From assembly GCA_944384405.1 (NCBI GenBank), contig CALWTH010000011.1, positions 9,904 to 73,903 of the forward strand: 64,000 bases of DNA. Direction: 5' to 3'. The notes beneath the pieces are model-generated. The model did no database searches. It was not told the origin of the DNA and worked only from the letters and a program-made list of their open reading frames with translations. This DNA comes from an uncultured Clostridia bacterium. GTDB lineage: Bacteria; Bacillota; Clostridia; Christensenellales; UBA1242. A program made the position numbers and the translations under genes. Below are positions 41,601 through 60,804 of this stretch, piece by piece; within the stretch, counting starts at the first letter, position 1, and each line of letters opens with the position of its first letter.

Positions 41601-42608
41601 ACCAATCAAGTGGCACAAGTTTATAGAAAGGATATGACTTTTGACTATGCTATTATAGACGAGGCAAGCAAATGCAGTTTGCAAGATTTATTAATAAGTT
41701 TGCCCATTGTTAAAAACATAGTTTTAATTGGCGACTATATGCAACTTGACCCCGTCTACGATAGATACAAAGATTTAGATGATGACACAAAAAAAATATT
41801 TGATGATTGTAAACAATTTTGGGAAGAACTGAATAAATCAGCTTTTAGTCTTTTACTTACAAAAGCTATTGAAAACAACTATAAAAACCAATTAACATCA
41901 TTTAATATTTGCAACAATGTTGCCATTATGAAAAGACAATATCGAATGAATAAAGGCATATTTGATTTGATAAGTCCAATATACAAAATTCATAATGGAT
42001 TTGAACTTATAGATGAGAAAAATACAAAATCAAATGATGTATTGTGCTTAAACATTTATGGGAAAGAGGAAATTGTTTTTATTGGAGAAAGACCAACATA
42101 TAGAAATGTTTTTGAAGCCAATTATATTAAAGATACTATTGAGTATATAGCACAAAATTATGATAAACTTGATATCAAAACTATTGGTATAATTACAGGT
42201 TATAATGGACAAGTTCGAGAGCTTAACAAAATACTAAAAAAGCCTACAAAACAAAGCTTGAAAATTGAAATAGGTACTTTTGATAGATTTCAAGGGAAAG
42301 AATTTGATTTGGTGCTTGTAAGTCTGGTTAGAACTGAGAAATTGGGATTTTTAGATGATGTACGCAGAATGAATGTTGCCTTTTCTCGTGCCAAGAAACA
42401 TCTTATTATATTTGGAAACATAAAAGAAATAGTAAAAAACTGCATGGTGAAGAAAACATATCAAACAAATTTAACTCCTATACAAAAAGAGCATAGATAT
42501 GTTAATGATGAGTTACTTCCAAAATTAAGTAGACTTTCTGATTCAAATGACTGTCATTCGGCAAATGAGGCAATACAAAAAATTAAGAAAATGTTGGAGG
42601 GCAAGTAA
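38622..42608 (+). CDS. SF1 (UPF1/DNA2-like) helicase with long coiled-coil insertion
   Basis: QGPPDTGKT, IIDEASK, GDYMQL, QYRM, FQGKEFD, RMNVAFSRAK. Confidence 0.85.
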   Translation: MLFYCSGKKVEVDENTKFSNYLFKRIYEALLYNKEMVPGKNGIPKSIQFSVNDIIYFSYFETGSNPNAPVPFEIIDEQDLNFDEVYANTIFIRFNDENFKNKYISCKLSKRCCESDRYLKGYDDITSMKNNKDDFCVLYADFSSQSNIDKLEKYHDYFNMLLIKLESKEETRFEINLDLMKENYSSFNDTAVDDKSLLLPVYGKFSYIKEVVLKYTIKGENKELHINLQNCYVKNENSLYRKKLIDLHINLDEKTTIYELCDLEEQDRNEIEWVIKNDKTEKLYITEDLKGEITRLKRILRALSRISSENVENLNLVETICNNSIDEFKYKFNVNDTSLDEITNKYPRFKQNKEQAIAMKKVLDMDINNVDVMLIQGPPDTGKTELIIALIKELFHRGKNILVSSNVHVACDNIIERIKDDKEIIVKRYKNLNQTSSYKIEKLINQQNYVKSQVYNKYKINDNPILNFDELKSLQLKKANQLKEINEHYDELKTKQYDFFCKIQQLKDLETNIIQNKEKIETKQEEIRVLEDEIKVLNKNLSDLNDELSGTLAEFNQKTQEYDNLVKNIDKFKAKTNKVDLKISQLNDEITTLQNNIDFNKDNIKYIEENCLKIEKEIEELYSINIENLRNEIQDKFYHCICIENANNYFEKAIKKINDFISLVAILNNQNLSLMAITKKLLSNNFKDCSFISEILEDLEILNKYYSYDATSKILSVFKIKSKVNNVSYWDYLKAKEKVLNFIYNILSTKKEILNTIIDNNINKGEILKRINRRKGSIQKQTIQKENLEQKILTTNNSILQNEKNLENQVAIRENLQHNIMMMEPNVAMLKYDIDELVDDEKSLQEDILQQKKKLQEKNELLKNYYESLKKLEDELSNLTINEKTFNQSIDLLSNNEEFLTFKQSLDACEKLQNDLSTEINQLNNKIQFLNKCQMSLTSVKDNSILFDYIKELRDISNCKIEDLNKYFDGCGNLFDAEFNVGGENKGSILSMTTNQVAQVYRKDMTFDYAIIDEASKCSLQDLLISLPIVKNIVLIGDYMQLDPVYDRYKDLDDDTKKIFDDCKQFWEELNKSAFSLLLTKAIENNYKNQLTSFNICNNVAIMKRQYRMNKGIFDLISPIYKIHNGFELIDEKNTKSNDVLCLNIYGKEEIVFIGERPTYRNVFEANYIKDTIEYIAQNYDKLDIKTIGIITGYNGQVRELNKILKKPTKQSLKIEIGTFDRFQGKEFDLVLVSLVRTEKLGFLDDVRRMNVAFSRAKKHLIIFGNIKEIVKNCMVKKTYQTNLTPIQKEHRYVNDELLPKLSRLSDSNDCHSANEAIQKIKKMLEGK

Positions 42609-44150
42609 ATGGGGATAGTTAAATATAGTAAAGCGATATCAATTCCGCTTTCTCTTTATTTGCTTAACATAAAAGATGCACCAATTTTAAAGTATGAAAA
42701 TTTAAGATTTTATGAGAAATACATAGTACTTGCCTTAAAATATGGAATCCAAGCAAATGATTTAAGTGATTTAAAACAGAAGATGTGTGAAATTTTTAAT
42801 ATTAAATATTCTTTTGTAGAAGAATTTATAGAGCACTATAACAATATAGGATTTATTAATTATGATAAAGAAAAGTCTTTATTTTCATTAACTGATTCGT
42901 ATTTACTTGAATATGACAAGAAAAACAATTCCATAATTCGCTCATGCACAAAAGAAAGTTTGTGTGACTTTATTAATATTGTTTACTTTAAAAAATCAAA
43001 TACTTTTCTTTATAATGAGGGTTTTAAAGATTTTATAAAAGACATGAAAAGTTATGAGAAAATTAACGATGAAACGTTTATTCAAATGTGCAAAGCAAAT
43101 GAACAATTATTGTTACTGCTCAATGATATATTAAAAAAAGATTCAATACATGCGATTATAAATAATAATCAGTTTGAAAAATCCAACATAGAAGTTTATG
43201 ATGCCGCAATAAAAGTTGATTGTTTATTAAATTATGCATACGATGGGCAATCGTCTAGTTTACAAAACTATATAATACCAAACTCCATACTTAAAGAAAG
43301 TATTAAAGATATTCTTGACGATACCATTGTTTTAAACTATAAAACTGATTTTGAAATTCCAAAATATGTTAAAGAGCATGAGTTGTATTCAGAAATGAAT
43401 GAAAGGAATAAACTTATCTCAAAGCATGAAGAAGAAATATTAAAAAATAACGAAGCGATTTTTGCAAAAGAAAATATTTTAAATTCGTTATCTATTAGGA
43501 AAAATCTAAAAAATAAAGAAAAAAAGACAATTAAAAAATTAAACAAAGAGGTTGTAGATTTAAAAGAGAAAATAGCAGAATTACAACGAGAAAACATCAA
43601 TTTGACAAATTCAAAAGAAGAATATAGTTTTTTTGACAATACAACAAAAGAAGTTTATTACAAATATTGTGGTAATATGTATTTTGACTATATGATTAGA
43701 CAAATTTGTGTAGTTATTGATAAAACAATTGAAGCACTATCAATTGGTGATAATGAAAATGTAGTTTTGGATTTAGCAAGCATAAGAAGTTGGGTAAACA
43801 AATTGGCTTATGCGATATACGACTATTATTGCGATGGACTAAAAGCAAAAGATTTATCTATGTATTTCCACGATAAATTTAAGCGAATGGAACTGGAAAA
43901 TATTTTGGCTAAGTTTAATATAAAACCTTATGACCTTACCAATATGGAAAAATGTCATAAACTTGTTGATTCTTGCTATCATCAAGGAGAAATAAACAAT
44001 AAAACTAAAATCAACCAAGAAAACATTGCAGATTTTTTAACAATTTCACAACAAGAAAAACGAGATATTTTATTAAGTTATATAAAATTATATAAAGTAA
44101 TTGATTTGACGGAAGAACAAAAGAAAGAAGTTTTAAGAAAGATAATATAG
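42609..44150 (+). CDS. Hypothetical helicase-partner protein
   Basis: Starts immediately after the helicase stop codon; winged-helix-like N-terminus, coiled coil, helical C-terminus. Confidence 0.65.
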   Translation: MGIVKYSKAISIPLSLYLLNIKDAPILKYENLRFYEKYIVLALKYGIQANDLSDLKQKMCEIFNIKYSFVEEFIEHYNNIGFINYDKEKSLFSLTDSYLLEYDKKNNSIIRSCTKESLCDFINIVYFKKSNTFLYNEGFKDFIKDMKSYEKINDETFIQMCKANEQLLLLLNDILKKDSIHAIINNNQFEKSNIEVYDAAIKVDCLLNYAYDGQSSSLQNYIIPNSILKESIKDILDDTIVLNYKTDFEIPKYVKEHELYSEMNERNKLISKHEEEILKNNEAIFAKENILNSLSIRKNLKNKEKKTIKKLNKEVVDLKEKIAELQRENINLTNSKEEYSFFDNTTKEVYYKYCGNMYFDYMIRQICVVIDKTIEALSIGDNENVVLDLASIRSWVNKLAYAIYDYYCDGLKAKDLSMYFHDKFKRMELENILAKFNIKPYDLTNMEKCHKLVDSCYHQGEINNKTKINQENIADFLTISQQEKRDILLSYIKLYKVIDLTEEQKKEVLRKII

Positions 44151-44648
44151 TGCTAATAAACAAAAAATAATTTTTTTGCCAATTAACCGAAGCCGTATTT
44201 ACTGGCGGGACTACGCAAAGTTTGGCTAACAGCAAATTTTTGGGGGACATTCATTGTTGTATTTTCCTATACAAAAATTTCATCATGCTTACAGTTGAAT
44301 AAAAGTAGATTACATTTAGATATTATAGCAAAATGGTATTTTAATCAAACAAAAAACATTTCAACAACCCAAAATGTTTTGTAAACTGTATCCATATCTA
44401 TTCATGAAATTAATTGATATGTATTATTTTATTAAAGGATCAGAAGATACTTTTTGTTTAGTTTGGGATTTAATAAAGATGAATTTAAAGATACAAATGA
44501 TTTTTTAAAATAAATTGATGTTGAAGGCAAAATGTGGGCAAATCTTGTATTAAGTAATTGTTGCAAGAAGCATTTAAAAATATAAAAAGTTGTCTTACAG
44601 GTATTAATCTAAATTCAAATGAGGGAAGCGAAGATTGGGTTTCTATAA

Positions 44649-46238
44649 TTATCGGTTAAGAGAAATTAAATTTTTAGGTATATACATGTATTGTGTTCTA
44701 TATAAAACTTGGTTTCTTTTTTTTATGTAATTTGAAATCCGTTTATTGTTATAAAATTTTTTTAACATATTTTGCTTTGTTAATGATACCTTAGTTTTAT
44801 ACATAACAACCAAATTTGTCGAATTGTCAAGATGTAGTTTTTTGCTAAGAATGGAGTTTCGTGCAAGCTTAAACTCGGCAAGACCAAAACAATCTATATA
44901 CTTAAAGTGTTTTAGAAAGTGTAGTGTTTTTCTTAGGTCAAAATTTGTTTCTGACGGATAGTTGTACATTAATGTAACGGAAGTGATTATATTATTTAGA
45001 TAACAATTTTTTAATATTTTTTTTGCTTGCAAAATATTTATTTGTTTATTCATTTTCTTTAGTAAACTATGGCTTAAGCATTCCAATCCAAAAGAAATTT
45101 CCTTAATCCCACTATGAGCTAGCTTGGCAACTTTGTTAAAATCTAAAAATTCCTTTTGAAATCTTGTTTCAACAATCCAATTTAGTTTTATATTATTTTT
45201 AATTAAAAAATCAGAAAGTTTTGACAAAACTTCAAACTGTACACATTCATCGATAAAATAAATCCCTTGTATATTTTCGGATTGAACAAGATCTTTGATT
45301 TTGTTAAAAATAGAGGTTAAGTTTAATAGTCTGTGTTTTTCATAATATATATACCTATTACAAAATTCACATTTAGAATGAAAGCAACCCAAATTTAAGT
45401 AAAATGGAACAATTTTTATGTTTGAAAGATATTTTTCCAAACACAAATCATCAAAACAAGGCGTGTATAAACTTGTATTTATTTCTGGGGTGTTACTACG
45501 TTTGTAAGTGCTGATTGTATCATTAATTTTAATTAAACAATCAATATAACTTTTTTTAGTAATAACATTGCAAATATTTTCATAATTGCCATGAAACACA
45601 ATGGCATCAAAGTCTGTTTTTTTTAAAATTTCCATTGCGTTGTCTTTGATTTGTGTTAAGTAATCGCCGCCAACAACAATGTAAGTATGCTTAAAATTTT
45701 TTTTAATTAAGTTTGCTAATTTAATGGCGAAAGGAATTTGGTAAGCATAACGGATTGATAAATAAAAAGAATCTTTATTTTTGTATGAGTTTAATTGAGA
45801 AAAAAAAATATCATCAAAAAGAGTACAATCATTTAAGGAATAAGAAATCAGCTCGTTGACTGTCCATAGCTGTTTTTGCGGTGTTATATTTCTTGCTGAC
45901 CATTCCAAATTATGAATATTTGAAATAAATTTTAAAACATTATAAAAAGAAGTATTTAATTTAAAAATATTATGAGGAATTTTTGTTTTATCTGTCAGTA
46001 ATTTTTTTGTATCGTTAATATTTTTTATATCTTCTATTGTATTTATATCACAATCATGTAAATACTTTGAATATTTTTCAGTTAAATATTTTTTATTTAG
46101 GCATTCTTGTAAAAATGAAAGAGTTAAATCATAATGAGTCGAACATATATGAGATTGGTTTAAAATATTCTTTATTATACAATTTTCCAGTTGTGGCATA
46201 TTAAAATTTGAAGCCGGGAGAGAAATTAAATTTATCAT
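44649..46238 (-). CDS. B12-binding-type (class B-like) radical SAM protein
   Basis: VVGG B12-domain segment; GCFHSKCEFC; YFIDE; SFGLE; AAAGGA RBS before ATG 46238. Confidence 0.75.
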   Translation of the reverse strand: MINLISLPASNFNMPQLENCIIKNILNQSHICSTHYDLTLSFLQECLNKKYLTEKYSKYLHDCDINTIEDIKNINDTKKLLTDKTKIPHNIFKLNTSFYNVLKFISNIHNLEWSARNITPQKQLWTVNELISYSLNDCTLFDDIFFSQLNSYKNKDSFYLSIRYAYQIPFAIKLANLIKKNFKHTYIVVGGDYLTQIKDNAMEILKKTDFDAIVFHGNYENICNVITKKSYIDCLIKINDTISTYKRSNTPEINTSLYTPCFDDLCLEKYLSNIKIVPFYLNLGCFHSKCEFCNRYIYYEKHRLLNLTSIFNKIKDLVQSENIQGIYFIDECVQFEVLSKLSDFLIKNNIKLNWIVETRFQKEFLDFNKVAKLAHSGIKEISFGLECLSHSLLKKMNKQINILQAKKILKNCYLNNIITSVTLMYNYPSETNFDLRKTLHFLKHFKYIDCFGLAEFKLARNSILSKKLHLDNSTNLVVMYKTKVSLTKQNMLKKFYNNKRISNYIKKRNQVLYRTQYMYIPKNLISLNR

Positions 46239-46248
46239 GAAATATCCT

Positions 46249-47226
46249 TTATTTAATAATACTATTAACAATCGTTTTTGAAAACAACAAATTTTTTATC
46301 CAAATCTTAATAAAGAATATATTGTTAATGTTATATTTGTTTACGCCAACAAAATTTTTAATTTTAGAATAAGTCTTGTTCATCTTTTCTTCTGTATCAA
46401 AAATCAGTGTTAAAAAGTTTGCACTTGATTTTATAATTTTAATACCGTCAAAACCATTTAAGTTGTCATAAATATAATCTCTGTTTTCCATAATGTACTT
46501 TCTTGTAGAATCAAAAGATTTTAATAATTTGGTGTCATTTAATAGTTTGACAATTATAGAAATTGAATGAGTGGAAATGGAATGAGGAGGAATAAGAGTG
46601 TTTCTTAATCCATTTATTCTTAATTTTGTTATCAAATATCCTGCTCTTAAGCCAGAAGCAATGAATTTTTTAGAGAAACTTCTTGCGATCATAATTCTTT
46701 CATTTTTCATACAAAGGTCAAGCAAATGATTCGGGTTGTTTGAGAAATCTACATATGCCTCATCAATAAAAAGATAACCTTTAAAAATAGATAGAATTTC
46801 ATTTATTTGGGCTAAAGAAAAAATTTCGCCATTAAACCATCGTGGGGATGAAATACAAAGCAGTGAATTTTCACTAGAATTTTTTGTTTTTAATTCCTCT
46901 ATAAATTCAGCCGTAGAAACAGCATCAATATGTGTTGTCTTTTTATTGTGTATTATACAGGTTCTTTCGTATAAGCCAAATTCGATAGATGGCAAAAAAA
47001 TTTCTTCCCATCTACTTAATGGCAAGATTGCCGATATAAGCTGACTAATTCCTGCACTAGCATAAATGTATTCTTTATCTATTTTTAAATCGTTAGAAAT
47101 TGCATTTACCAAAGGATCACTTAATGGGGCTTTGGGATCAAAACAGAAATCTCCATCAATATCCCCAAACTTAAATTTTTTAGACCACTTTTTTAATTTT
47201 TTGTTATATAACCAAACAGATGACAC
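46249..47226 (-). CDS. PLP-dependent class I/II aminotransferase-fold enzyme (HisC/CobD-like)
   Basis: FIDEAYVDF, RSFSK...GLRAGY, SSANF; GAGGTG RBS. Confidence 0.85.
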   Translation of the reverse strand: MSSVWLYNKKLKKWSKKFKFGDIDGDFCFDPKAPLSDPLVNAISNDLKIDKEYIYASAGISQLISAILPLSRWEEIFLPSIEFGLYERTCIIHNKKTTHIDAVSTAEFIEELKTKNSSENSLLCISSPRWFNGEIFSLAQINEILSIFKGYLFIDEAYVDFSNNPNHLLDLCMKNERIMIARSFSKKFIASGLRAGYLITKLRINGLRNTLIPPHSISTHSISIIVKLLNDTKLLKSFDSTRKYIMENRDYIYDNLNGFDGIKIIKSSANFLTLIFDTEEKMNKTYSKIKNFVGVNKYNINNIFFIKIWIKNLLFSKTIVNSIIK

Positions 47227-47276
47227 ATCATCACCTCATAGAAATTATAAATTAAAAACAATTTCATGTCAAATAC

Positions 47277-47305
47277 TTGACTTGTAAATTCATTGTTTAT
47301 AAAAT
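47277..47305 (+). promoter_or_regulatory. Sigma-A promoter of the YcaO operon (leaderless)
   Basis: TTGACT-17-TAAAAT, 7 nt before ATG 47313. Confidence 0.65.
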
Positions 47306-47312
47306 ATTAACA

Positions 47313-48911
47313 ATGATTCGATTAGAAAATGAAATTAGGAAAGATGCTCCATTAAGGTCAACGATCAGGCTGATAAAAAGAATTTTAAAAAAAAATAATA
47401 TAAAATTTAAAGAAAAAGGGTTCAAATCCTTAAATGGTTTTTTTTCTGGAAGAATAGCGTTAGATCGCTATACGGGTGCAAACGGCAAGGGGATAACCAA
47501 AAGTCAGGCAAAAGCATCTGCTTATGGCGAATTGCTTGAAAGGCTACAGACAAATATGCTTTATAAAAAAATAACAGAAAAGAAGACATATATTGTAAAT
47601 AGAAAAAATAAATATATTAATATTGCTTTAAAATCTGCATCACAACAATTTAGAGAAGAGTTTTACAAGTTAGACGATACATATTTTTTTGAAGATGAAT
47701 TTGTGGATTTAGCAAGTGAACAAGCAGAAAAATTGCCAATAAGTGTTATAAATTATTCATGCCATACTAATGGTCTTGCTGCTGGAAATTCGAAAGATGA
47801 GGCATGTGTTCAGGCAATTTGTGAGGTGCTTGAACGATATATATACAAAAAAATATTGTCGTGTAATGTTTCTACAAAAATTGTTATGAACTATGAAAAG
47901 AACTTAACTAAAAATAATAAAAAGATCTTGGATAAAATATGTGAAAAAGGATATGATTTTGAAATAAGATATTGTACGGATTTTTGCTATCCAGTGATTG
48001 CTTTTGTGCTTTATAATAAAGAACATACAAAATATATGTTTACACTTGCCTCAGACATTAATTTTAATATTGCTCTTCAAAGAGCTGTTACTGAAATGTT
48101 TCAAGGTCGCAATATAAAAAATATCAACAATCAAATGTTAGATAAAAACGAGGATATTGAAGAACTTGCAAACAAATATAAATATGATTATAATTCATAT
48201 AATTGGCTCCTTTGCTTTAATTATAATTGTGGTTTAATTCCCAAAAGTGCATTTAGTTTAGAAAAAGTTTCGTTTGCAGCTTTAAACTTTAATAGTTGCA
48301 TTAATTCAAACACAAAGGCATTAGAATGGCTAAAGTCATTAATCAACTCGCACATATATGTGAAAGATTATAATGTATTAGGATTTGATACTGTGCGCGT
48401 TTATATCCCTGGGTTAAGTGAAATTGATTGCTTTGACCAATGTGATTTAATAATTTCTAAAAATCAAGAAAAACTTAAGAATATTTTTTTAGACATTTTA
48501 AACCAATCAGATGAGAATATAAACTTTTTTTTAGATAACATATGGGAATTATGTAAACACATAAAATATCAAAATCTTATTTTACCAAAAAATTTTTTTA
48601 AAGTGGAGGGAACTACAAAATATTTTCAGCTGACCTTTACAAGCCTTGCAATAATTTTGTCTGCTATTGTAAAAAGGAAAAAAGAACTAGCTGATTTATT
48701 ACAATTTCAAATAAACAACTTTCCACTTTCGTTAAAAGCAAGAGAAAATAATTTGTATATTCTAAGCTTGTTACAAGACAGACCTTTAACATTAAAAAAT
48801 AAAAATTTAGAAAATTATTATAAAAACTTATTTTTGAATCCCAAAGAATATTTAAAAAGTTTAAAACCGAAAGTAAAGATAGTGGAATCAAAATTGTTTA
48901 ATAAAATATAA
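47313..48911 (+). CDS. YcaO-like family protein
   Basis: KDAPL, NGKG....AKASAYGELLER, TNGLAAGN..EA..QAICEVLER, RAVTE, RVYIPGLSE. Confidence 0.9.
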   Translation: MIRLENEIRKDAPLRSTIRLIKRILKKNNIKFKEKGFKSLNGFFSGRIALDRYTGANGKGITKSQAKASAYGELLERLQTNMLYKKITEKKTYIVNRKNKYINIALKSASQQFREEFYKLDDTYFFEDEFVDLASEQAEKLPISVINYSCHTNGLAAGNSKDEACVQAICEVLERYIYKKILSCNVSTKIVMNYEKNLTKNNKKILDKICEKGYDFEIRYCTDFCYPVIAFVLYNKEHTKYMFTLASDINFNIALQRAVTEMFQGRNIKNINNQMLDKNEDIEELANKYKYDYNSYNWLLCFNYNCGLIPKSAFSLEKVSFAALNFNSCINSNTKALEWLKSLINSHIYVKDYNVLGFDTVRVYIPGLSEIDCFDQCDLIISKNQEKLKNIFLDILNQSDENINFFLDNIWELCKHIKYQNLILPKNFFKVEGTTKYFQLTFTSLAIILSAIVKRKKELADLLQFQINNFPLSLKARENNLYILSLLQDRPLTLKNKNLENYYKNLFLNPKEYLKSLKPKVKIVESKLFNKI

Positions 48912-48922
48912 AGGAGAAATTT

Positions 48923-49042
48923 ATGGGGAAGGTTGCAAAGAAAAAAAACAAAATTTATATCAAGGAGTTAAAACCAGAGATAACACAATGTAGAATAATA
49001 CAAGTGGAGAAAAAAATAAATGAGAAACAAGCAAAAATATGA
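48923..49042 (+). CDS. 39-aa basic small ORF (not in ORF track)
   Basis: AAGGAG RBS; MGKVAKKKNKIYIKELKPEITQCRIIQVEKKINEKQAKI; overlaps the next start. Confidence 0.45.
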   Translation: MGKVAKKKNKIYIKELKPEITQCRIIQVEKKINEKQAKI

Positions 49043-50252
49043 ACTTGCAGGCTTAAGCCAAAAAATAAGCTTAAATTCTTTCAAAACTCCCTTGTATGTA
49101 TATCTACAAATAAACACCATTTGTAATTTCAATTGCAAATTTTGTTCAAGGGAAAGTATGCCCAACAAATCAATAGATTATTTAGATTTTAAATATATTA
49201 TAGATAGTTTATCCGAGTTCGGCGTTAATGATATTTATATTACAGGAGGAGAGCCTCTTCTTCACCCTCAAATTGATGATATGATTGATTATGCTTTGAC
49301 TAAAAAAATGAACATTTCAATTTTGACAAATGGTTTTTACATAGATAGACATGTTGAAATTTTAAAAAAAGTGGCTTGTTTGAGTGTTTCGCTTCATGGC
49401 GAAAAGGAAACACACAACAAAATTGTGGGATTTAATTGTTATGACAAAATTATAAATAATATAAATTTAATGGTTGGCAAGGTTAATTTAACCATAAATT
49501 ACACCGCATTTAACGAAAATATAGATGAAAAGAATATATTGTCAGTTTATAACTTTTGTGATCATAACAAAATCAAAATGAACGTATCTCGCTACAACGA
49601 TTTAGGGTGTGGAAAAATTAATAAATGCGATTTAGACTTAAATATTTTTATGAAAAATATTTATCATTTGGTTGAAAGAGGATATGATATTGGTGTTAAT
49701 AATTGTATTGCTCCGTGTGTTGTTTCTCCGAAATATCTCCATTTAACGCATGGCTGTGGTGCAGGAAGTATATTTTGTGCGATTGATTATGATTTGAATG
49801 TAAAAATTTGTTCAAGTGCAACTCAAGTGATAAGCAATTTGAAAAAAAATTCATTACAGAAGATTTGGAACAACAAATTATTAAAAACATTTCGGGGACT
49901 GAAATGGTTGCCGATTTACTGTAAATCATGTATAAATCTAGCGCGATGTAGAGGAGGCTGTAGGATTGAAGTTGGTAATAACCTTCTAGGGCTTAATGAT
50001 AAAAATGTTTACGACTTAAATGAAAACACTTGGAGAAAAATTCGAAACAAAAATTTTGAAGTGTGTATTGGTAAAGCAAGGAAAGAAGCAAATTTCTTTA
50101 TTAGTTTATCCACGCCATCAAGACTATTTTCAAAGGAGGTATTAAATGTCTTACAAAAAATACAATCTACCGGAAAAATTTCTGACTTAGAACAATATAA
50201 AGATCTTATTTTATCTCTCTATAGAGATAAAGTTATAAAGGAGAAACAATGA
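49020..50252 (+). CDS. Radical SAM/SPASM peptide-maturase-like protein
   Basis: CNFNCKFC, TGGEP, CGAG...C, CKSC..LARCRGGC. Confidence 0.9.
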   Translation: MRNKQKYELAGLSQKISLNSFKTPLYVYLQINTICNFNCKFCSRESMPNKSIDYLDFKYIIDSLSEFGVNDIYITGGEPLLHPQIDDMIDYALTKKMNISILTNGFYIDRHVEILKKVACLSVSLHGEKETHNKIVGFNCYDKIINNINLMVGKVNLTINYTAFNENIDEKNILSVYNFCDHNKIKMNVSRYNDLGCGKINKCDLDLNIFMKNIYHLVERGYDIGVNNCIAPCVVSPKYLHLTHGCGAGSIFCAIDYDLNVKICSSATQVISNLKKNSLQKIWNNKLLKTFRGLKWLPIYCKSCINLARCRGGCRIEVGNNLLGLNDKNVYDLNENTWRKIRNKNFEVCIGKARKEANFFISLSTPSRLFSKEVLNVLQKIQSTGKISDLEQYKDLILSLYRDKVIKEKQ

Positions 50253-51424
50253 TAAATAAGAGATGTTTGGAAAAAGACAAAAACTTAATTATGTGGCTTA
50301 ACAAATACTTTGTTGTGAATGATTTTACATTAAAACTAATCGAGTTTTTTGATGAAAAGAAAACAAAAAAAGAAATAAGTTCGCTTTTGAATATTAGCAG
50401 ATTTAAAGTTGGAAGATATTATAAAAAAATAGAAAATGAAATAATAAAAAGAGATTTCTATGAAAATAATATTAATTTAAAAACACCAATAAAAGTACAA
50501 TGGAAGGTGACAAAGAAATGTAATTTGAAATGTAAGCATTGTTATTTGGGTGAACTTAATAATTTTGAGCCTTCAAAAGAGTTGGTTGATAAAATATTAA
50601 GTGAGATTTTAAAATCAAATGTTATGGAGGTGACATTGTCTGGTGGAGAATGCTTGACCTGCCAATACATTGATTATATCGCAAATACACTGCTATCTCA
50701 TGACATAAAAATAACGATTTTTACAAATGGTTTATTACTAAATAAGTTTGTAGAAAAAATTGATACAAAATACAAGGATAGGGTTGTCATAAATGTTAGC
50801 GTTGATGGCTTAAAAAACACTCATGAACAAATTCGCGGGAATAATACTTTTGACAAAACTATATCTAATATTGAATTTGCCGCATCAAAAGGTTTTTCAA
50901 TAACATCAGCAACAGTGGTTAATAGTATCAATTATGATGATATTATAGACATGATTGTTTTATTAAGGTCAAAAGGGGTTAAACATATTCAGCTGTCAAA
51001 TATTATAATTAGGGGTCGAGCTGAAAAAAAATTAGAATTGAGCATTGAAAAACAAATGGCTATGAAACAAAGATTGTTAAATTTATATAAAGAACACCCT
51101 GAATATGAGCATATTTTCTATTCAGAAGTACCAGATGAAGATGGTAAACGGAAAGTTTTTAAAATTGAAAATGGTAATTCTGAATTTGTTGGTAATGACA
51201 ATTGGAAGTGCACCGCAGGACTGGCAAGGGTAACAATAAATGAAGATGGCCGTGTTTATTGCTGTCCATTCTTAGAAAAAAGCTACTTAGGTGATTTAAA
51301 ATGCAACACTTTAGAAGAAATATGGAACAAGAAAGAAAGATATGAATTTTTGGATTTTATAATAAAAAGTAATACTGACAGAGTTTGCGTTGCAATCAAA
51401 CAAAATAAAGGAGAGGATAAATGA
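50249..51424 (+). CDS. Radical SAM/Twitch protein with RRE-like N-terminal domain
   Basis: CNLKCKHC, SGGE, CTAG...GRVYCCP...LEEIWN; N-terminal ~70-aa winged-helix-like segment. Confidence 0.88.
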   Translation: MINKRCLEKDKNLIMWLNKYFVVNDFTLKLIEFFDEKKTKKEISSLLNISRFKVGRYYKKIENEIIKRDFYENNINLKTPIKVQWKVTKKCNLKCKHCYLGELNNFEPSKELVDKILSEILKSNVMEVTLSGGECLTCQYIDYIANTLLSHDIKITIFTNGLLLNKFVEKIDTKYKDRVVINVSVDGLKNTHEQIRGNNTFDKTISNIEFAASKGFSITSATVVNSINYDDIIDMIVLLRSKGVKHIQLSNIIIRGRAEKKLELSIEKQMAMKQRLLNLYKEHPEYEHIFYSEVPDEDGKRKVFKIENGNSEFVGNDNWKCTAGLARVTINEDGRVYCCPFLEKSYLGDLKCNTLEEIWNKKERYEFLDFIIKSNTDRVCVAIKQNKGEDK

Positions 51425-53139
51425 TATCGGTTGAGAAATTTTATAATAATAAATCAAAAGTTGAAGAGTTTATTTCAAAAAGAGCATTTTGTAGTAGAAT
51501 GTTGTTTCAAATGATTATAAATGAAAAATTTGCAGATGAAATAAATAATTACATTGATTTTTTTAATAAAAAAATATTTGATAGTAAAAAAATTGACAAA
51601 ATTCTAAACAAAATTCACGCTAAAACGGTAAAGTATTACGAAAAGGCCTACAATGAAAGCAAGAATAAGGTAAAGAATATTTTAATGTCACTGGCATATT
51701 TTTACTTCTTAGAGAGTGTTGATGAGCATAGTTCATTTTCTGTTGGGTTGCAAGAAGAAATTAAGAAAAAATATGGTGAAGATAAATACTTGGATATTAT
51801 TTCAAAAGTTGACAAAATTTACCTATCTAATGATGTTAAAAATATAATTCAACAAAGTAACGAAGATATTGACTTAAATTGTCAATTAATTGCGACATAT
51901 TTGGTATTAAAAAAATTCCAGGATTCTCAGCATGATTTTTTTGAGGGCGAATATGGGAAATTTACCGAAGAAGTACAACGAAGGTACTGTAAAAATTATT
52001 CTGCAACACCATTTGATATTGATTTTTTAACTTTAAGAAAATTTTTGTTTAAAATTATGCAGAAAAACAAAATTTTATCATTGGATCAAGTAAGTCTTTT
52101 ATGTGGACTATATATAAAAAAATATGTTATTAAATTAGTTGGTGGAAAAATGTTTGGGCTAGGTATGCTCAATTTACATGGTATAAAAGTTCCGTTCACG
52201 GTTTGTATTCCAACAAATACAAATTTAAAAAACGAAGATCTAAGTTTTCTTGAATCAAAATGTACAAAATTTTCAGTCAGGAGTTCTGCTGATATTGAAG
52301 ATGGAGAAGAAAATTCTTTTGCAGGAATGTTTGATTCATATTTAGATGTTAAGTTTGAAAATTTACCAAAAGCAATACATGATGTTAAAAATTCTGTAAA
52401 CAATTCTCGTTTAAAAGCATATATAAAAAAGACCAAACTTGATAAGCCACATATGGCAGTTGTAATACAAGAGTTTGTTGAGCCTGAATATTCGGGAGTT
52501 TGGATTGGAAATGATAAAGACGATGGAATTTTAGAGTGGGTTAAAGGAAATGGAGAAAAGCTTGTTTCTGGCTCCAGTACTCCTGTTTCCGAAGTGTGGA
52601 ACAAAAAACAATGTGAGGGCCCTTCATTAAAATCTGATAATGATGTTGCTATAGGGGAACAACTGATTTGCTTTCAAAATAAATTAAATGTTATCGCTGA
52701 TTTTGAATGGATGGTTTTAAATGGAAAGCTTGTTATGTTGCAGTATAGGCCAGTAACAAGAAAAATCAAGATAGAGACTATTAAATCTGAAGAAAATAAT
52801 GATGGAGTTATAAAAGGCACGCCAGCATCTTCTGGAATTGTTGAAGCTAAGTTTTATATTGCGGATGATTATACTGAAAAAATCCAAACAGACAAAATTC
52901 TTGTTGCATATGCAACCGATCCAAATTGGATTCCACATATTATAAAATCCAAAGGGGTAGTAACTGTAACTGGTGGTTTTTTATGCCACGCAGCAATTAT
53001 TTGTAGAGAACTTGGAATTCCATGCGTTACTGGTATAGGCAATGAAGGATTAAGTGTTTTAAGCAATAATTTGGAAAAAGTATTGACTTTAAATGGGAAT
53101 CATGGTAGCATTAGTTTAGGAGGGAGTAGTAGTGATTAA
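51421..53139 (+). CDS. PEP synthase/PPDK-like phosphotransferase (ATP-grasp plus phospho-His swivel domain) with extra N-terminal helical domain
   Basis: VGGK, VRSSA..ED....SFAG, GEKLVSG, DFEW...LQYRPVT, GGFLCHAAIICRELGIP. Confidence 0.88.
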   Translation: MISVEKFYNNKSKVEEFISKRAFCSRMLFQMIINEKFADEINNYIDFFNKKIFDSKKIDKILNKIHAKTVKYYEKAYNESKNKVKNILMSLAYFYFLESVDEHSSFSVGLQEEIKKKYGEDKYLDIISKVDKIYLSNDVKNIIQQSNEDIDLNCQLIATYLVLKKFQDSQHDFFEGEYGKFTEEVQRRYCKNYSATPFDIDFLTLRKFLFKIMQKNKILSLDQVSLLCGLYIKKYVIKLVGGKMFGLGMLNLHGIKVPFTVCIPTNTNLKNEDLSFLESKCTKFSVRSSADIEDGEENSFAGMFDSYLDVKFENLPKAIHDVKNSVNNSRLKAYIKKTKLDKPHMAVVIQEFVEPEYSGVWIGNDKDDGILEWVKGNGEKLVSGSSTPVSEVWNKKQCEGPSLKSDNDVAIGEQLICFQNKLNVIADFEWMVLNGKLVMLQYRPVTRKIKIETIKSEENNDGVIKGTPASSGIVEAKFYIADDYTEKIQTDKILVAYATDPNWIPHIIKSKGVVTVTGGFLCHAAIICRELGIPCVTGIGNEGLSVLSNNLEKVLTLNGNHGSISLGGSSSD

Positions 53140-53254
53140 ATTTATTAAAAAATTATTTTCTAGGAAAAAGGATGTTTTGATTGATATTAATTCAATTGAT
53201 AATTCTTTGTCTTTGTCTATGGCTGGACATGGTGATTGCTCTGATCAATGTTAA
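53132..53254 (+). CDS. Candidate 40-aa RiPP precursor peptide (not in ORF track)
   Basis: GGAGGGAG RBS; GTG start overlapping the upstream gene end; MIKFIKKLFSRKKDVLIDINSIDNSLSLSMAGHGDCSDQC. Confidence 0.7.
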   Translation: MIKFIKKLFSRKKDVLIDINSIDNSLSLSMAGHGDCSDQC

Positions 53255-53316
53255 TCAAAATTTATATTGTTTTTTATTAAAAACAAAATACAAACAGTTT
53301 AAAAAATATATATAAG

Positions 53317-53358
53317 AAAAACACACTCTCTTAGATTGTTCTAAGAGAGTGTGTTTTT
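53317..53358 (+). terminator. Intrinsic terminator closing the YcaO operon
   Basis: AAAAACACACTCTCTTAGA-loop-TCTAAGAGAGTGTGTTTTT. Confidence 0.85.
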
Positions 53359-53377
53359 AACATCTCCAAATTGCTGA

Positions 53378-53545
53378 GTTGAAATAATAAAGTTGAAGTT
53401 TGTCCTAATAAAGTACATATGCTAATTTCAATTCCACCAAATTTAATCATGAGTCGAACTAATGTATCAGAAATATGCAAATATGAAAATCAAATATAGG
53501 AATAGAGAATTTTGGTACGTGGATATTATGTAAACAAGTAGAGGA
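53378..53545 (+). pseudogene. tnpA: IS200/IS605 TnpA (Y1 transposase) relic
   Basis: Broken frames give EVCPNKVHMLISIPP, MYQKYANMKIKYRNREFW and RGYYV. Confidence 0.8.
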
Positions 53546-53872
53546 AATTACCAACTTGCCCAGCACAAAAATTGGATTGTGCTCTGCCCACTAAAATCCT
53601 TTAAAACACTAGCAAATAAGATGGTGTTTTTTCTTTTGCTGTCAATCTTAAAATTCACTGACACCTACTGACACCATGCTCAATATTTATGAAAAATTCT
53701 GCCCATTTTAGACTTTCTAGGACTATCTAAAACTAAATATATTATGAATTGAATTTTGTATATTTGAGTTTTCGTAATCAAAAACAATATACAAGAAAGT
53801 ATATAAGAAAATATACAAGATAATTGACTTTTAATGTGAGAATAGGTTACAGTGTAAAAGGAGAAATGATTT

Positions 53873-54688
53873 ATGGAATATTATAAAAAAATAGATAAAT
53901 CCACATTTGATGGCAGGATTACTGTTCCCAAAAAATATTGGATATACTTTATAGATGTTAATAAAGAGACATGGGGTACACATAAAAAAATTTGCATAAA
54001 ATTTAAAAATAAAAAATATAATGGAAAATTTTCTTTTGTTTTACAATCAACAGGAAGAAAAGTTTTTCAAATATTTTTAGATACTGAACTTGTTAAAGTA
54101 TTAAAAAAAGAATTTATTCAATCTTATATTGCAATAGAAAGCCAAAAATTGCTTAACAAGAATGGGAAATTTCATACTGAACTTATTGGCGGAAGTCAAG
54201 AGGTGATTGTCTTTGAAAAGCTAAATGAAACTGAAATTGAATTGTCGACATTTATAAAAGTTGAAACTCCTTATGATAATTTATTTAAGCACCTTGTTGA
54301 TTCGAATGTGTTTGGTTGGTTAAGTTTAGAGAAACAAGATCAGATGATTACTAAATATACAAAATGGATGGATATCTCCGAGTTAAAGAAGCATGAAGAT
54401 CAAAATCATGTTATTTATTATTTAATTGATGAAATTAATAAGGAAGTATACATTGGCAGTGCAACAAGACTTGGAGATAGGGTTAAGATTGGAAGAAAGG
54501 AAATCTCAGGATGGAATAAGTTTATGTATGCGATTATACATCCTAAGTTTCATCAGTACATAAAGGAAATTGAATATCATACTATAATGAGTTTTGCGGC
54601 ATTTATGAAAAATAATGGTAATAAAGCAAATTGTGGTATATCTGATTACACATTAGTAAACAAAGATTACAAATATTACAGAGATTAA
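53873..54688 (+). CDS. GIY-YIG nuclease-like protein
   Basis: VIYYLID....EVYIGSA..L..R in the C-terminal part; AAGGAG RBS. Confidence 0.6.
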   Translation: MEYYKKIDKSTFDGRITVPKKYWIYFIDVNKETWGTHKKICIKFKNKKYNGKFSFVLQSTGRKVFQIFLDTELVKVLKKEFIQSYIAIESQKLLNKNGKFHTELIGGSQEVIVFEKLNETEIELSTFIKVETPYDNLFKHLVDSNVFGWLSLEKQDQMITKYTKWMDISELKKHEDQNHVIYYLIDEINKEVYIGSATRLGDRVKIGRKEISGWNKFMYAIIHPKFHQYIKEIEYHTIMSFAAFMKNNGNKANCGISDYTLVNKDYKYYRD

Positions 54689-54736
54689 AATTAATTTTTT
54701 TTGGTATAAAATAATTTTTTGTTAAGAGGTATGTTA

Positions 54737-55724
54737 TTGACGAAAAATATATTCCGCCTTATGAAATAACTGATGAGATGTTAGAATTAGTGTCCGAAAT
54801 TATGGAAAATTTAGGAAAATTAAGTGGAGTTAATGAACTTGAGAAATTTCCAAGACTTCGCAGAGTGAATAGGATAAAGTCTATTCATTCTTCTCTTGCG
54901 ATTGAAAACAACACTCTTTCCCTCGAGCAAGTGACAGATGTTATTGATGGAAAGCGAGTGTTCGGACCAAATGAAGATATAGTTGCAGTTCAAAATGCAA
55001 ATTTGGCATACAGAGAACTTGAAAATGTAAATCCTTATAGCATTAATGACTTGTTAAAAGTCCACGAAATAATGATGAACGGACTTGCAAACGAGGCGGG
55101 GAAAATTAGGACAGGACAAGTTGGAGTTTATAATGAACACGGAAAAGTTGTTCATTTTGCTCCACCTGCGGAGTTTGTTCCAGAACAACTAGGACAACTT
55201 TTTGACTGGATAAAGACTAGTCCAGCAAATATGCTTATTAAGTCTAGTGTTTTTCATTATGAATTTGAGTTTATCCACCCATTTCGTGATGGGAATGGAA
55301 GAATGGGAAGGCTTTGGCAAACAGTGCTCCTTGCAAGTTGGAAGCCAATCTTTGCTTGGATACCTATTGAAAGTATCATAAAAGATAATCAAGAAGATTA
55401 TTACAATGCAATAACACTGTCAACAAGCCAGGCGAAATCAAACATTTTTATCGTGTTTATGCTAGATGTGATAAACAAAGCAATCAAAGATATAATAACC
55501 GACACAAGAAATCACTATAACCATATAAACAATCAAATCACAGAACTTATGAAAGTAATTGAAAGTTATCCGCAATCTGCAACAGAACTTATGCAAAAAC
55601 TAAATCTAAAGTCTCGTGTTGGTTTCAGAAAAATTACTTACAACCAGCCCTAGATGCTGGACTAATCGGCATGAACGAACCCGGCAAACCAACCAGCAAA
55701 AACCAAAAGTATTTTAGGATTTAG
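54737..55724 (+). pseudogene. Fic family protein with two apparent -1 frameshifts in A-runs
   Basis: HPFRDGNGRMGR motif; N-terminus (TTG 54737, ...YIPPYEIT) and C-terminus (YLQPALDAGLI...PTSKNQKY) are out of frame with the 54778-55653 ORF. Confidence 0.7.
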
Positions 55725-55994
55725 ATATTATAACATGAAATATGAAATTTAATAATAAAAATATTATAACAAACTAATTATAGGAAATATATTCTGGCTC
55801 TATATAAAAATTATAGTGTTTATATTAATCTTATAAAATTTATAATCTTTTGTAGATATCTTTTTTATTTTCTGTATAAATACAAATAGTTGAAAAATAT
55901 AAAATTTTAGAATTAAAATTACATAATAAGTTGCATTTTTCTTATTTATATAATATCATTATATCAAGATATATAGATATCATTAGGAGTTTAT

Positions 55995-56156
55995 ATGAAA
56001 AATACAAAATCTTTAATTATACGTATGTCTCCTGAACTTCATAAACAAATAAAACTTATTGCTGTTAAAAATGATAAAAGTATTAATGAATATGTTGTGG
56101 AAGCTATAAAAAAAATTGTAAAAGTTGAAGAAGGGAGAAAAAATGAAAAGCAATAA
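55995..56156 (+). CDS. Ribbon-helix-helix (Arc/HicB-like) DNA-binding protein, 53 aa (not in ORF track)
   Basis: AGGAG RBS; LIIRMSPELHKQIKLIAVKNDKSINEYVVEAI. Confidence 0.75.
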   Translation: MKNTKSLIIRMSPELHKQIKLIAVKNDKSINEYVVEAIKKIVKVEEGRKNEKQ

Positions 56157-57348
56157 TTACACTTTTATTGATTTATTTGCAGGTGCTGGAGGACTTTCTT
56201 TAGGATTCTGCAATGCAGGATATACTGGAATTTTTGCGATAGAAAAAAATAAGGATGCTTTTAGTACTTTATATTTTAACTTAATTTCTAAAAATAAATT
56301 TAATTGGCCACAATGGCTACCAAGAACTGAATTAGATATTGTCGAAGTCCTTAAAACATATAAGAAAGAATTATATAAACTTAAGGGGGAAATTGATATT
56401 GTTGTAGGAGGTCCACCTTGCCAAGGATTTTCAATGGCTGGAAGAAGGGATCATAGTGATTTTAGGAATACTATGGTAAATAATTATATAGAGTTTGTGA
56501 AATGCGTAAAGCCTAAATATATCCTTTTAGAAAACGTTCATGGTATTTCTGTAGATTTTAAATTAAATAATGGAGATAAAATAAAATACTCGGAAGTTGT
56601 AATTGAAGGATTAAAAAAATTAGGATATAATATAAAAGTTAAAGAGATTTTTATGGATGAGTACGGTATTCCTCAAAGAAGAAAAAGATTTATTTTGGTT
56701 GGAAGTTTGAAAAAAAATATAGATGATTTTTTTGAAAAACTTGACAAGTATAAGTTAAAATTTCTCAAGAAAAAACAGCTAAATATAAGAACTACAGTAG
56801 GCGATGCTATTTCAGATTTGTTAGAGAGTAATGGTATCTATAAATGTCCAGATTGTAAACAGTTTTTTTATAGTGGTTATTATGGTAATATTAATACATC
56901 ATATCAAAGGTTTATGAGAAAAAAAATCAAAAGTGACGAAAATCCAGATAGCCATAGATTTGCGAATCATAGTAAACAAATCCAAGAAATGCAGAAATTT
57001 ATGATTGAACACTTAGAACATGGAAAAAGATATAAACCATCAGACAATTTGGTTCCAAATTTAAAAAGGAGAGGGGTTGTTTTGTTGGATCCTAATAGCC
57101 CAGCTCCAACAGTTACGACTCATCCCGATGATTTTGTACATTATAGTGAACCTAGAATTTTAACAGTTCGTGAATTGGCAAGAATTCAAAGTTTTCCAGA
57201 TTGGTATCAGTTTAAAGGGAAATATACAACAGGTGGGGAATTAAGGAAAAAAGACGTACCAAGATTTACACAAGTTGGTAATGCAGTTCCGCCATTGTTT
57301 GCAGAACAATTGGCAGAAATATTTAAGGAGTTTTTATACAATGATTAA
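56143..57348 (+). CDS. DNA (cytosine-5)-methyltransferase
   Basis: FAGAGG, GGPPCQGFS, ENV, QRRKR, RELARIQSFP, GNAVPP. Confidence 0.95.
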   Translation: MKSNNYTFIDLFAGAGGLSLGFCNAGYTGIFAIEKNKDAFSTLYFNLISKNKFNWPQWLPRTELDIVEVLKTYKKELYKLKGEIDIVVGGPPCQGFSMAGRRDHSDFRNTMVNNYIEFVKCVKPKYILLENVHGISVDFKLNNGDKIKYSEVVIEGLKKLGYNIKVKEIFMDEYGIPQRRKRFILVGSLKKNIDDFFEKLDKYKLKFLKKKQLNIRTTVGDAISDLLESNGIYKCPDCKQFFYSGYYGNINTSYQRFMRKKIKSDENPDSHRFANHSKQIQEMQKFMIEHLEHGKRYKPSDNLVPNLKRRGVVLLDPNSPAPTVTTHPDDFVHYSEPRILTVRELARIQSFPDWYQFKGKYTTGGELRKKDVPRFTQVGNAVPPLFAEQLAEIFKEFLYND

Positions 57349-60482: not shown

Positions 60483-60544
60483 ATTTTTCTGATTTTAATT
60501 TTATAATACATAAATTTAACAATGTGTTATAATAGTCTAAAGAA

Positions 60545-60804
60545 AAAGTTTTATAAACGAATTTATTTTTATAAAGGAACTATTTAAAAATGAAAAATAT
60601 CAAGAAATGATACATTTTTAAAATATCATTTCCTATGCTCCATCTGCAGATCCCTTTGTGATAGCTAAGGCTAAGTGTGAAAATGCAATAGTTGTAACTA
60701 TTGAAGAGCGAAAACTAAATTCATCTAGGACGCCTACAGTGTGTGATGATATTGGGATAAGATGTATTAGTTATGAAGATTTTATGAGTGAGTATATTAG
60801 ATAA
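60545..60804 (+). pseudogene. DUF4411/PIN-like gene remnant
   Basis: ADPFVIAKA....IVVT.E...PTVC..IGIRCI; no intact 5' end. Confidence 0.6.

Follow-up and report, generated by a model that had tools for sequence, protein, structure and literature searches.

What would be made by a group of genes that places a YcaO enzyme, radical S-adenosylmethionine (SAM) enzymes of different kinds, a pyridoxal phosphate (PLP) enzyme and a relative of pyruvate phosphate dikinase (PPDK) around the gene of a 40-aa peptide? The question is raised by positions 44649-53358 of the window, the stretch of 64,000 nucleotides from an uncultured Clostridia bacterium that was analysed here as a whole. As read from open reading frames (ORFs) and domains, eight genes lie there in two divergent units covering 8.7 kb, and all genes named in an earlier sequence-only reading of this DNA were found where it had placed them. 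The minus-strand unit consists of a HisC-like PLP enzyme and a B12-type radical SAM enzyme, which overlap or abut; the plus-strand unit comprises, in this order, YcaO, a 39-aa ORF (orf39), a radical SAM/SPASM enzyme (rSAM1), a radical SAM/Twitch enzyme with a recognition element (rSAM2), the PPDK-like enzyme, the 40-aa peptide and a terminator, with adjacent genes overlapping by a few bases, in keeping with the tight coupling described before. In all probability, the cluster serves the biosynthesis of a peptide that is made on ribosomes and modified after translation (RiPP), of a family that we did not find described and with the mechanism proposed below; its chemistry, as read from the genes, would be that of RiPPs. 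This reading is favored because a conserved peptide with leader and core adjoins the enzymes, because rSAM2 has the topology of a RiPP recognition element (RRE) and because its closest matches are RiPP maturases.

The peptide combines a basic, amphipathic leader (isoelectric point (pI) 9.8) with an acidic stretch formed by its last 14 residues (pI 4.2). G32 and D38 show no variation among 24 aligned sequences (A2), at least 90% of which retain C36. To place the peptide among its relatives, 80 loci were retrieved from species-representative genomes with a profile of 32 PPDK-like relatives (alignment A1), and the ORFs shorter than 120 aa in these loci were searched with the pattern G-x3-C-x-D(-x-C)$: 29 of 21,161 small ORFs match, each of them within a cluster and on its strand. 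A Shine-Dalgarno-like motif is located 5' of 29 of the 30 peptide genes to which a start was given. In a collection of 5.8 billion proteins, the precursor family forms 90 clusters and corresponds to no Pfam family; five of the 90 bear a name, which is 'hypothetical protein'. The database precursors end in three forms, MAG[NHSD]G[ND]CSDxC, [EQ][LC]GGNYC[SQG]DxC and [EQ]LGGNYC[QR]D. The cluster-specific end motif, the Shine-Dalgarno sites and the RiPP-maturase fold of rSAM2 bear out the proposal that this peptide is the precursor; they support it as the substrate, the last 9-14 residues (..A-G-H-G-D-C-S-D-Q-C) presumably being the core.

A hallmark of rSAM2 is its N-terminus. In the AF2 model (pLDDT 85), residues 3-66 form three strands followed by three helices, which corresponds to the RRE fold as far as the model goes, while a Pfam search with E values up to 10 detected no PqqD/RRE match in this region. 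Foldseek returned SkfB (6efn; TM 0.63, E 4e-17) as the best match, followed by CteB (5why) and SuiB (5v1t), each over the whole length; the sequence profile finds the same three and reaches into their N-terminal regions. The Cx3Cx2C cysteines C91/C95/C98 are conserved, as are the Twitch-like C321, C338, C339 and C380. The modelled RRE topology and these four C-terminal cysteines agree with the description as an RRE-like radical SAM-Twitch enzyme, and the SPASM/Twitch assignments of both plus-strand radical SAM enzymes are confirmed by Pfam SPASM matches above cut-off. The same fold of RRE, barrel and Twitch/SPASM domain is shared by SkfB (sporulation killing factor), CteB (sactipeptide) and SuiB (streptide), but their NCBIfam equivalogs score below cut-off here and the precursor is unrelated; none of these systems is known to include a YcaO, PPDK-like, PLP or B12 enzyme.

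For rSAM1, sequence matches in the PDB were SkfB, SuiB and PqqE. The protein carries its Cx3Cx2C motif at 35-42 (C35/C39/C42), seven cysteines in the SPASM region and approximately 90 additional C-terminal residues, where no PqqD/RRE match appeared in Pfam either (E up to 10). PapB (ranthipeptide, freyrasin) and QhpD are SPASM radical SAM enzymes that form Cys-to-Asp thioethers, and the window cluster resembles the ranthipeptide and QhpD systems in that a conserved Cys and Asp, two residues apart, are encoded next to SPASM/Twitch enzymes. However, ranthipeptides have repeats of the C-x-D type, whereas the window precursor has a single C-x-D unit and many more enzymes, and the match of rSAM2 to PapB is weak (60 bits vs. 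a cut-off of 340).

Whether the eight genes belong together was addressed with the 54 of the 80 loci (L002-L055) whose match extends into the N-terminal part of the PPDK-like protein; partner genes were searched in them with profiles built from the window genes. (An earlier scan of genome contigs with the single YcaO protein as query had found nothing.) A related peptide is present in 32 of the 54 loci, and YcaO accompanies it in 27; among the other five, three are cut by contig ends, one holds a decayed remnant and one, L048, is truly without the gene. Sixteen of the 54 loci contain all eight genes, i.e. PLP, B12-type radical SAM, orf39, rSAM1, rSAM2, YcaO, PPDK-like and peptide, so that the check for co-localization of homologs came out positive. 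Their order varies. Type A reads PLP-B12-orf39-rSAM1-rSAM2-PPDK-peptide and type B orf39-rSAM1-rSAM2-peptide-PLP-B12-PPDK, in both cases with YcaO convergent, and the window shows a third arrangement, in which PLP/B12 are divergent and YcaO comes first. Because the genes stay together through this reshuffling, the data support the view that they form one unit and one pathway, as previously suggested; synteny survives with the PLP/B12 pair in a divergent, an upstream and an inserted position.

The same rearrangements bear on the idea that the PLP/B12 pair is an unrelated operon that merely adjoins the YcaO, radical SAM and PPDK-like genes. It is suggested by the divergent transcription of the pair in the window and by the fact that cluster types C and D function without it, but of the 32 loci with a precursor, 21 have the two genes adjoining other cluster genes, upstream in type A and between the precursor gene and the PPDK-like gene in type B. 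Such company kept through rearrangements is unexpected of chance neighbors, and we consider this explanation hardly credible.

Seven further loci, from metagenomes, were found with the peptide profile. All are of type A and have rSAM2, PPDK-like enzyme, peptide and YcaO; six also carry the B12-type radical SAM enzyme and rSAM1, and four the PLP enzyme, the remainder being cut at contig ends. Four of these loci are complete, and in L085 rSAM2 is only a fragment. orf39 is a separate ORF in one of the seven, the B12 frame running over its place elsewhere. Type A loci may include additional genes, namely a Peptidase_S51 gene after YcaO (8 loci) and, in some, a TehB/TPMT-like methyltransferase gene before the PLP gene; Peptidase_S51 is also encoded upstream of the cluster in the type B locus L026. 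Separately, a frame reading ..C-G-G-G-G-(P/A).. arises from G-rich DNA in several type A loci (L003 4668-4775, L004 4643-4765, L008 4005-4127, L006 3985-4060), immediately upstream of the gene for the methyltransferase or the PLP enzyme; what is conserved there may be an RNA or a regulatory element, and not a peptide.

The component that sets this cluster apart is the PPDK-like enzyme. It starts with a helical domain (1-252), continues with an ATP-grasp part and ends directly after a swivelling His domain that carries GGFLCH with His523; His523 is invariant among 32 sequences, and the AF2 model is well defined (pLDDT 88.6, pTM 0.86). The nearest solved proteins, by sequence as well as by fold (Foldseek), are PPDK (1kbl) and rifampin phosphotransferase (RPH, 5hv3). 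The TIM barrel that binds phosphoenolpyruvate (PEP) or pyruvate is absent, the chain stopping just past the swivel domain. A function as PEP synthase or PPDK was therefore rejected, and NCBIfam scores are at most 143 against cut-offs of at least 598. Of the earlier term 'PEP-synthase-like phosphotransferase', the ATP-grasp and phospho-His domains thus stand, whereas the PEP/pyruvate barrel does not. In RPH and PigC, the phospho-His swivel machinery phosphorylates or activates a substrate from secondary metabolism, not pyruvate. The combination of ATP-grasp and swivelling phospho-His domain is common to RPH, the prodigiosin ligases PigC/RedH and PEP synthase/PPDK; the window enzyme differs from RPH, PigC and PPDK in its length of 572 aa, its new helical N-domain, the missing barrel and its position next to a peptide gene, and its score with the PigC model is 110 vs. 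a cut-off of 1300.

The helical N-domain is family-specific, judging from its 51 matches (E <= 0.001) among 1.84 billion representative proteins, which are mostly N-terminal in proteins of 545-640 aa. Overall, 801 proteins among 8000 candidates scored are full-length relatives of the PPDK-like enzyme at E <= 0.001; the 120 relatives listed share 39-89% identity and have generic names only. A predicted complex of PPDK-like enzyme and precursor (alignments A1, A2) scored 0.00, which has no bearing either way. In L054, a 37-aa ORF (5213-5326), unrelated to the precursor, with a strong Shine-Dalgarno motif and the sequence ..SKSHCVCEENK in its C-terminal part lies just upstream of a PPDK-like gene that has none of the usual partners; it is possibly a different type of precursor for the PPDK-like family.

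The relationship of core residues and enzymes may be read from the architectures. Type C loci (L018, L032, L034-L036; decayed L033, L039) have only rSAM1, PPDK-like enzyme and YcaO, four of them with an extra small radical SAM protein of 272 aa, and their peptides end ..GGNYCQD; cores ending at D occur in loci without rSAM2, orf39, PLP and B12 enzymes. In L055, rSAM2 and orf39 are present, PLP/B12 are missing, and the peptide ends ..CGDVC. Types A and B and the window have all enzymes including the PLP and B12-type radical SAM enzymes, together with peptides ending ..CSDxC. At the other extreme, L048 encodes a related peptide, ..GGSYGTDIC, that has no Cys at -4; it is located beside the PPDK-like gene, with no YcaO or radical SAM gene within 10 kb. 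Among the 21 PPDK-like loci in which the pattern found no peptide, only L048 had a precursor-like peptide nearby. This one locus fits the view that the PPDK-like enzyme and an Asp-containing end constitute the base of the system. From the series as a whole we infer that YcaO and rSAM1 track the Cys and that rSAM2 and orf39 track the terminal x-Cys; PLP/B12 may track Ser37.

orf39 has the invariant TQCR within ELKPEMTQCRI(V/I)QVDKK (alignment A4, 18 sequences) and an ATG start in 19 loci and in the window, being startless in the pseudogenized L023. By its conservation, it is a gene and not filler, and it could be another peptide substrate or else a small partner. Neither Pfam nor NCBIfam contains a match, and searching the ESM Atlas for the two small peptides yielded nothing usable. 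A leader shared by orf39 and the precursor was considered and rejected (hhalign probability 0.6%).

YcaO enzymes phosphorylate backbone amide oxygens. In the window protein, the ATP/Mg-binding residues of ExxER type (E85/E88/R89, E183/E186/R187) are conserved, and the generic domain model TIGR00702 is passed with 130.9 bits, which is above cut-off; more specialized models fall far below it, with 51.3 vs. 219 for the SagD-type model TIGR03604 and 59.6 vs. 365 for TIGR03266, the model scored with regard to thioamidation with TfuA (thioamitides, McrA). The C-terminus yielded nothing in Pfam at E up to 10. The conserved ATP/Mg residues are shared with the YcaO domains of other YcaO RiPPs (azol(in)e peptides, TfuA thioamitides, bottromycin), but the window cluster has no E1/ThiF-like partner, dehydrogenase or TfuA, and its core is C-terminal and tiny. 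Domain scans detected neither an E1/Ocin-ThiF-like partner nor a flavin mononucleotide-dependent dehydrogenase among cluster genes or neighbors, and TfuA (PF07812) was not found across the 85%-complete source genome, with the control genome matching; the corresponding absences read from the sequence before are thereby extended.

The best PDB match of the window YcaO is Escherichia coli YcaO (4q84), and the protein is basic (computed pI 9.2). The E. coli enzyme is active in the absence of TfuA and thioamidates uL16 in vitro when given only sulfide, Mg and ATP; it is of the uL16 type and acidic (pI 4.4), and non-acidic members of its group occur in RiPP contexts (PMC13063428). Given that the nearest relative is this TfuA-free enzyme, yet the window protein is basic, by analogy both a thiazoline at Cys36 and a thioamide are possible products. 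An alternative in which the YcaO would act on a cellular protein, in the manner of the E. coli enzyme on uL16, and the small ORFs would not be its substrates is suggested by the best solved match and by the fact that the E. coli type is the second-best NCBIfam match after TIGR00702, but that match (NF040716) reaches 126.9 of a required 700, the acidic character of uL16-type enzymes (PMC13063428) is not shared, and YcaO occurs in 27 of the 32 precursor loci. Since YcaO was also not found in any of the 40 relatives scanned, which is a poor fit to a housekeeping role, a cellular target is highly improbable.

The PLP enzyme belongs, by its sequence, to the HisC/CobD fold family: its best PDB match is HisC, the SFSK lysine K186 is conserved among 21 sequences, and the NCBIfam scores for hisC (112 vs. 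277) and CobD (89 vs. 291) are both below cut-off. For its neighbor, conservation of Met12 suggests ATG 46238 as the true start. Its cluster motif is Cx4Cx2C (C296/C301/C304), and the cysteines as well as Met12 are conserved among 22 sequences. All 13 NCBIfam matches are to B12-radical SAM families, some spanning the N-terminus, and all remain below cut-off (best TIGR03975, 57 bits vs. 282); a sequence search of the PDB gave no match. The earlier designation as a class B radical SAM enzyme has its basis in these matches below cut-off and is tentative; the motif is not Cx3Cx2C.

These components could act on the peptide in the following manner: the leader would bind to the RRE of rSAM2 and, probably, to the helical N-domain of the PPDK-like enzyme as well. 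The PPDK-like enzyme would transfer a phosphate from ATP via His523 to the core, where the likeliest acceptor is the carboxylate of Asp38, as this is the only invariant side chain bearing an oxygen and as RPH and PigC offer an analogy; the resulting acyl phosphate may then be captured to close a ring or to form another new bond. YcaO presumably activates, at the expense of ATP, the backbone amide at or next to Cys36, yielding a thiazoline or a TfuA-independent thioamide. A radical cross-link at Cys36 and/or Asp38 may be introduced by rSAM1 through its SPASM-type chemistry, and rSAM2 together with orf39 would handle the terminal x-Cys. The translationally coupled PLP and B12-type radical SAM enzymes might contribute a methylation together with an amine/keto or decarboxylation step, which may be linked to Ser37. 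This would give, as end product, a small, compact C-terminal peptide that is heavily modified, or else a compound derived from such a peptide.

A different view concerns the nature of this end product only: the peptide could serve as scaffold for a cofactor-like compound, its modified C-terminal residues being cut off as an intracellular small molecule as in pyrroloquinoline quinone (PQQ), mycofactocin or pearlin. Conservation is much higher in the core than in the enzymes (window and L003 differ at 4 of the last 14 residues, while their PPDK-like proteins are ~51% identical), and for a HisC/CobD-like PLP enzyme, a free small molecule would be a better fit than a peptide. Conserved genes for export, immunity or leader cleavage are lacking, in keeping with an intracellular product. 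A Peptidase_S51 (PepE-like) is encoded in the eight type A loci and L026, but this peptidase is absent from the window and most loci. PQQ and mycofactocin are made from a short peptide with conserved C-terminus by a radical SAM/SPASM maturase, with no exporter, and rSAM1 and rSAM2 weakly match the mycofactocin (MftC) and PqqE maturases; however, all model scores are below cut-off and no PqqB/C/D- or MftB/D/E-type genes occur among the neighbors. YcaO and PPDK-like enzymes are not known from PQQ, mycofactocin or daptide systems. In daptides, a PLP aminotransferase acts at the C-terminus of the peptide. The window cluster is similar to the daptide clusters (PMC12338566) in that a PLP enzyme of aminotransferase fold occurs in a RiPP-type cluster. 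Downstream or user enzymes are not conserved nearby, and rarity, patchiness and nearby recombinases are typical of accessory traits more than of cofactors. A scaffold or cofactor precursor is therefore a tentative and rather doubtful alternative, and the modified peptide of the RiPP reading is retained here.

Several points weigh against the RiPP reading or against parts of its mechanism. The cluster is known here from genes and models. Protease, exporter and immunity genes are not conserved with the cluster, which is unusual for a secreted antimicrobial RiPP; the sequence-only reading had pointed to the lack of protease and exporter, and across the loci none is conserved, S51 being confined to some relatives. 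Since 22 of the 54 PPDK-like loci have no recognizable peptide, the PPDK-like family is wider than the peptide system. orf39, a candidate substrate or partner, has no profile similarity to the precursor. The covariation of residues and enzymes comprises four or five architecture types, clades and not independent events, and two of the residue-enzyme links rest on one locus each (L048, L055); moreover, database precursors ending GGNYCQDxC exist and could break the link of Ser37 to PLP/B12. The Pfam B12-binding match of the B12-type radical SAM enzyme is weak (E 0.092), and fold-type I PLP enzymes normally require a free amine or keto group, neither of which an internal peptide residue offers.

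As for novelty, the only curated NCBIfam model to reach its cut-off with a cluster protein is the generic YcaO domain. In full-text literature, outside which most subscription journals lie, no paper was found that pairs an enzyme of PPDK/PEP-synthase type with YcaO, radical SAM enzymes or RiPPs. The claim that the cluster matches no described class was tested by absence only (no equivalog at cut-off, unnamed peptides, no matching literature), and held to that extent. With regard to individual systems, the cluster resembles that of bottromycin in combining YcaO and a B12-type radical SAM enzyme (PMC5103208), and the dehydrazole system, which according to passages of PMC10676384 has no PPDK-type enzyme, was rejected as unrelated. 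On the sequences, the cluster is best read as a new family within RiPP clusters that is a member of no named class.

There is roughly an even chance that the cluster goes further and represents a new RiPP class, with the PPDK/RPH-type phospho-His swivel enzyme acting on the invariant Asp as its signature and with add-on modules per core residue. These modules would be YcaO and SPASM radical SAM enzyme for Cys, the RRE-containing radical SAM enzyme with its 39-aa partner for x-Cys, and PLP and B12-type radical SAM enzymes for Ser. If true, a ribosomal peptide would for the first time be the target of this phosphotransfer machinery, and there would be a rare natural case in which core residues can be read against enzyme modules. 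An enzyme of PPDK/RPH type that modifies a ribosomal peptide would be a new enzyme class and would probably bring a new Asp-carboxylate chemistry to RiPPs; genome mining would likewise gain a new handle, as RiPP discovery hinges on knowing which enzyme types to seek. The family is compact (51 N-domain clusters, 90 precursor clusters) and resides in gut Bacilli and Clostridia that are uncultured and have small genomes, the 8.7-kb cluster being a large investment for a genome of ~1.2 Mb. Its modular variants provide a ready experimental design in minimal (3-4 genes), intermediate (5) and full (8) form.

Table 1. Genes and predicted signals of the cluster (window coordinates)
Feature	Coordinates	Strand	Description
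B12-type radical SAM enzyme	44649..46271	-	540 aa from TTG 46271; Pfam Radical_SAM 34.8 bits
PLP enzyme, HisC/CobD-like fold-type I	46249..47226	-	325 aa, GTG start; Pfam Aminotran_1_2 92.6 bits
Divergent promoter region	47244..47305	both	consensus matches, predicted
YcaO	47313..48911	+	532 aa from ATG 47313 (open from TTG 47277); Pfam YcaO 126.7 bits
orf39	48923..49042	+	39 aa, lysine-rich, overlaps rSAM1 start; no family match
rSAM1, Radical SAM/SPASM	49020..50252	+	410 aa; Pfam Radical_SAM 74.5 bits, SPASM 25 bits
rSAM2, Radical SAM with RRE-like N-domain	50249..51424	+	391 aa; Pfam Radical_SAM and SPASM above cut-off
PPDK/rifampin-phosphotransferase-like enzyme	51421..53139	+	572 aa; Pfam PPDK_N 103.2 bits, PEP-utilizers 67.4 bits
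Precursor peptide	53132..53254	+	40 aa, GTG start 7 nt after GGAGGG Shine-Dalgarno; core SLSMAGHGDCSDQC
Terminator hairpin	53317..53358	terminator-like on both	19-pair stem, 4-nt loop, upstream A run, downstream T run

Expression of the two units presumably starts from the region between them (Table 1). Toward the PLP/B12 pair, a promoter-like site with the sequence TTGACA-17-TATAAT (47272..47244) fits the consensus at 12 of 12 positions, and on the plus strand TTGACT-17-TAAAAT (47277-47305) fits it at 10 of 12; both are predictions. As the latter site is situated inside the longer ORF that opens at TTG 47277, ATG 47313 is the likely true start of YcaO, and the divergent gap is 86 bp, as reported before, provided that YcaO begins there. 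The plus-strand -10 element ends 7 nt 5' of this ATG with no Shine-Dalgarno motif in between, and the YcaO message may therefore be leaderless. At the other end, the hairpin is terminator-like on both strands owing to its upstream A run and downstream T run, and the stem followed by the plus-strand T run matches the strong terminator noted earlier. It is followed by ~500 bp of non-coding DNA (53360-53870) that has no long ORF before the next gene and may be an island junction or a gene remnant. Contigs of run X2 (a second sample of the same study) span 42437-45267 and 51601-54105 without differences, and both cluster edges are thus reproduced in a second sample; many short X2 'joints' were discarded, as their sides had only 20-22 letters. 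A search for sequencing runs that contain the DNA gave chicken-gut and other metagenome DNA runs as holders, and no RNA run.

The source genome (~1.17 Mb, 57 contigs) is the only one among 401 genomes of the same order to contain the PPDK-like protein at E <= 1e-50. By these searches the cluster is rare and patchy, and the term 'gut Clostridia' proposed for its distribution turned out to be imprecise, as relatives are mostly labelled as Bacilli metagenome-assembled genomes (MAGs). Large serine recombinases are located near the cluster in nine loci. Decaying copies occur as well: stops abound in L023, and L005, L009, L033 and L039 contain no more than remnants. In L023 (4700-13500 of a complete MAG chromosome), stops and frameshifts break a type A cluster in which the peptide end can still be read, which indicates that the cluster is being lost in that lineage.

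In its own neighborhood, the cluster is flanked by an MkoA-like helicase on one side and by Fic, Dcm, GHKL, receiver and ResIII genes on the other, in a region lower in G+C than the first half of the window (25-30% from ~36 kb to the window end vs. 30-38% over most of the DNA before, with 28% at 24-26 kb). This setting, and matches of both plus-strand radical SAM enzymes to prokaryotic viperin models in PADLOC, could suggest that the cluster is part of anti-phage defence, its peptide product or its enzymes acting on phage or host targets during infection. However, the viperin matches are limited to the shared radical SAM core, beyond which no PADLOC model fits the cluster, and the other four enzymes match no model. 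The flanks in other loci hold recombinases, ABC ATPases, kinases and assorted genes instead of defence genes, and a scan of a viral contig collection with the PPDK-like profile revealed no relative. We regard a role in defence as very unlikely and keep to RiPP biosynthesis.

Outside the cluster, an SF1 helicase of 1328 aa (AAA_11/AAA_12; PADLOC MkoA, E 5.7e-66) is directly followed by a 513-aa protein with no family match (38622-44150); the two may be a Mokosh-like or a new two-gene defence pair. On the far side, a run of defence-type genes (53873-63602) encodes a 271-aa protein of unknown type, Fic, a Dcm C5-methylase, a 773-aa double-GHKL ATPase, a receiver-domain protein, YpsA/SLOG and a ResIII helicase, the methylase gene overlapping that of the double-GHKL ATPase. 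Finally, a surface protein of 1390 aa (31996-36168) with an M60-like peptidase N-domain, a beta-helix and PMP repeats may be a mucin-directed protease, which would fit a gut habitat.

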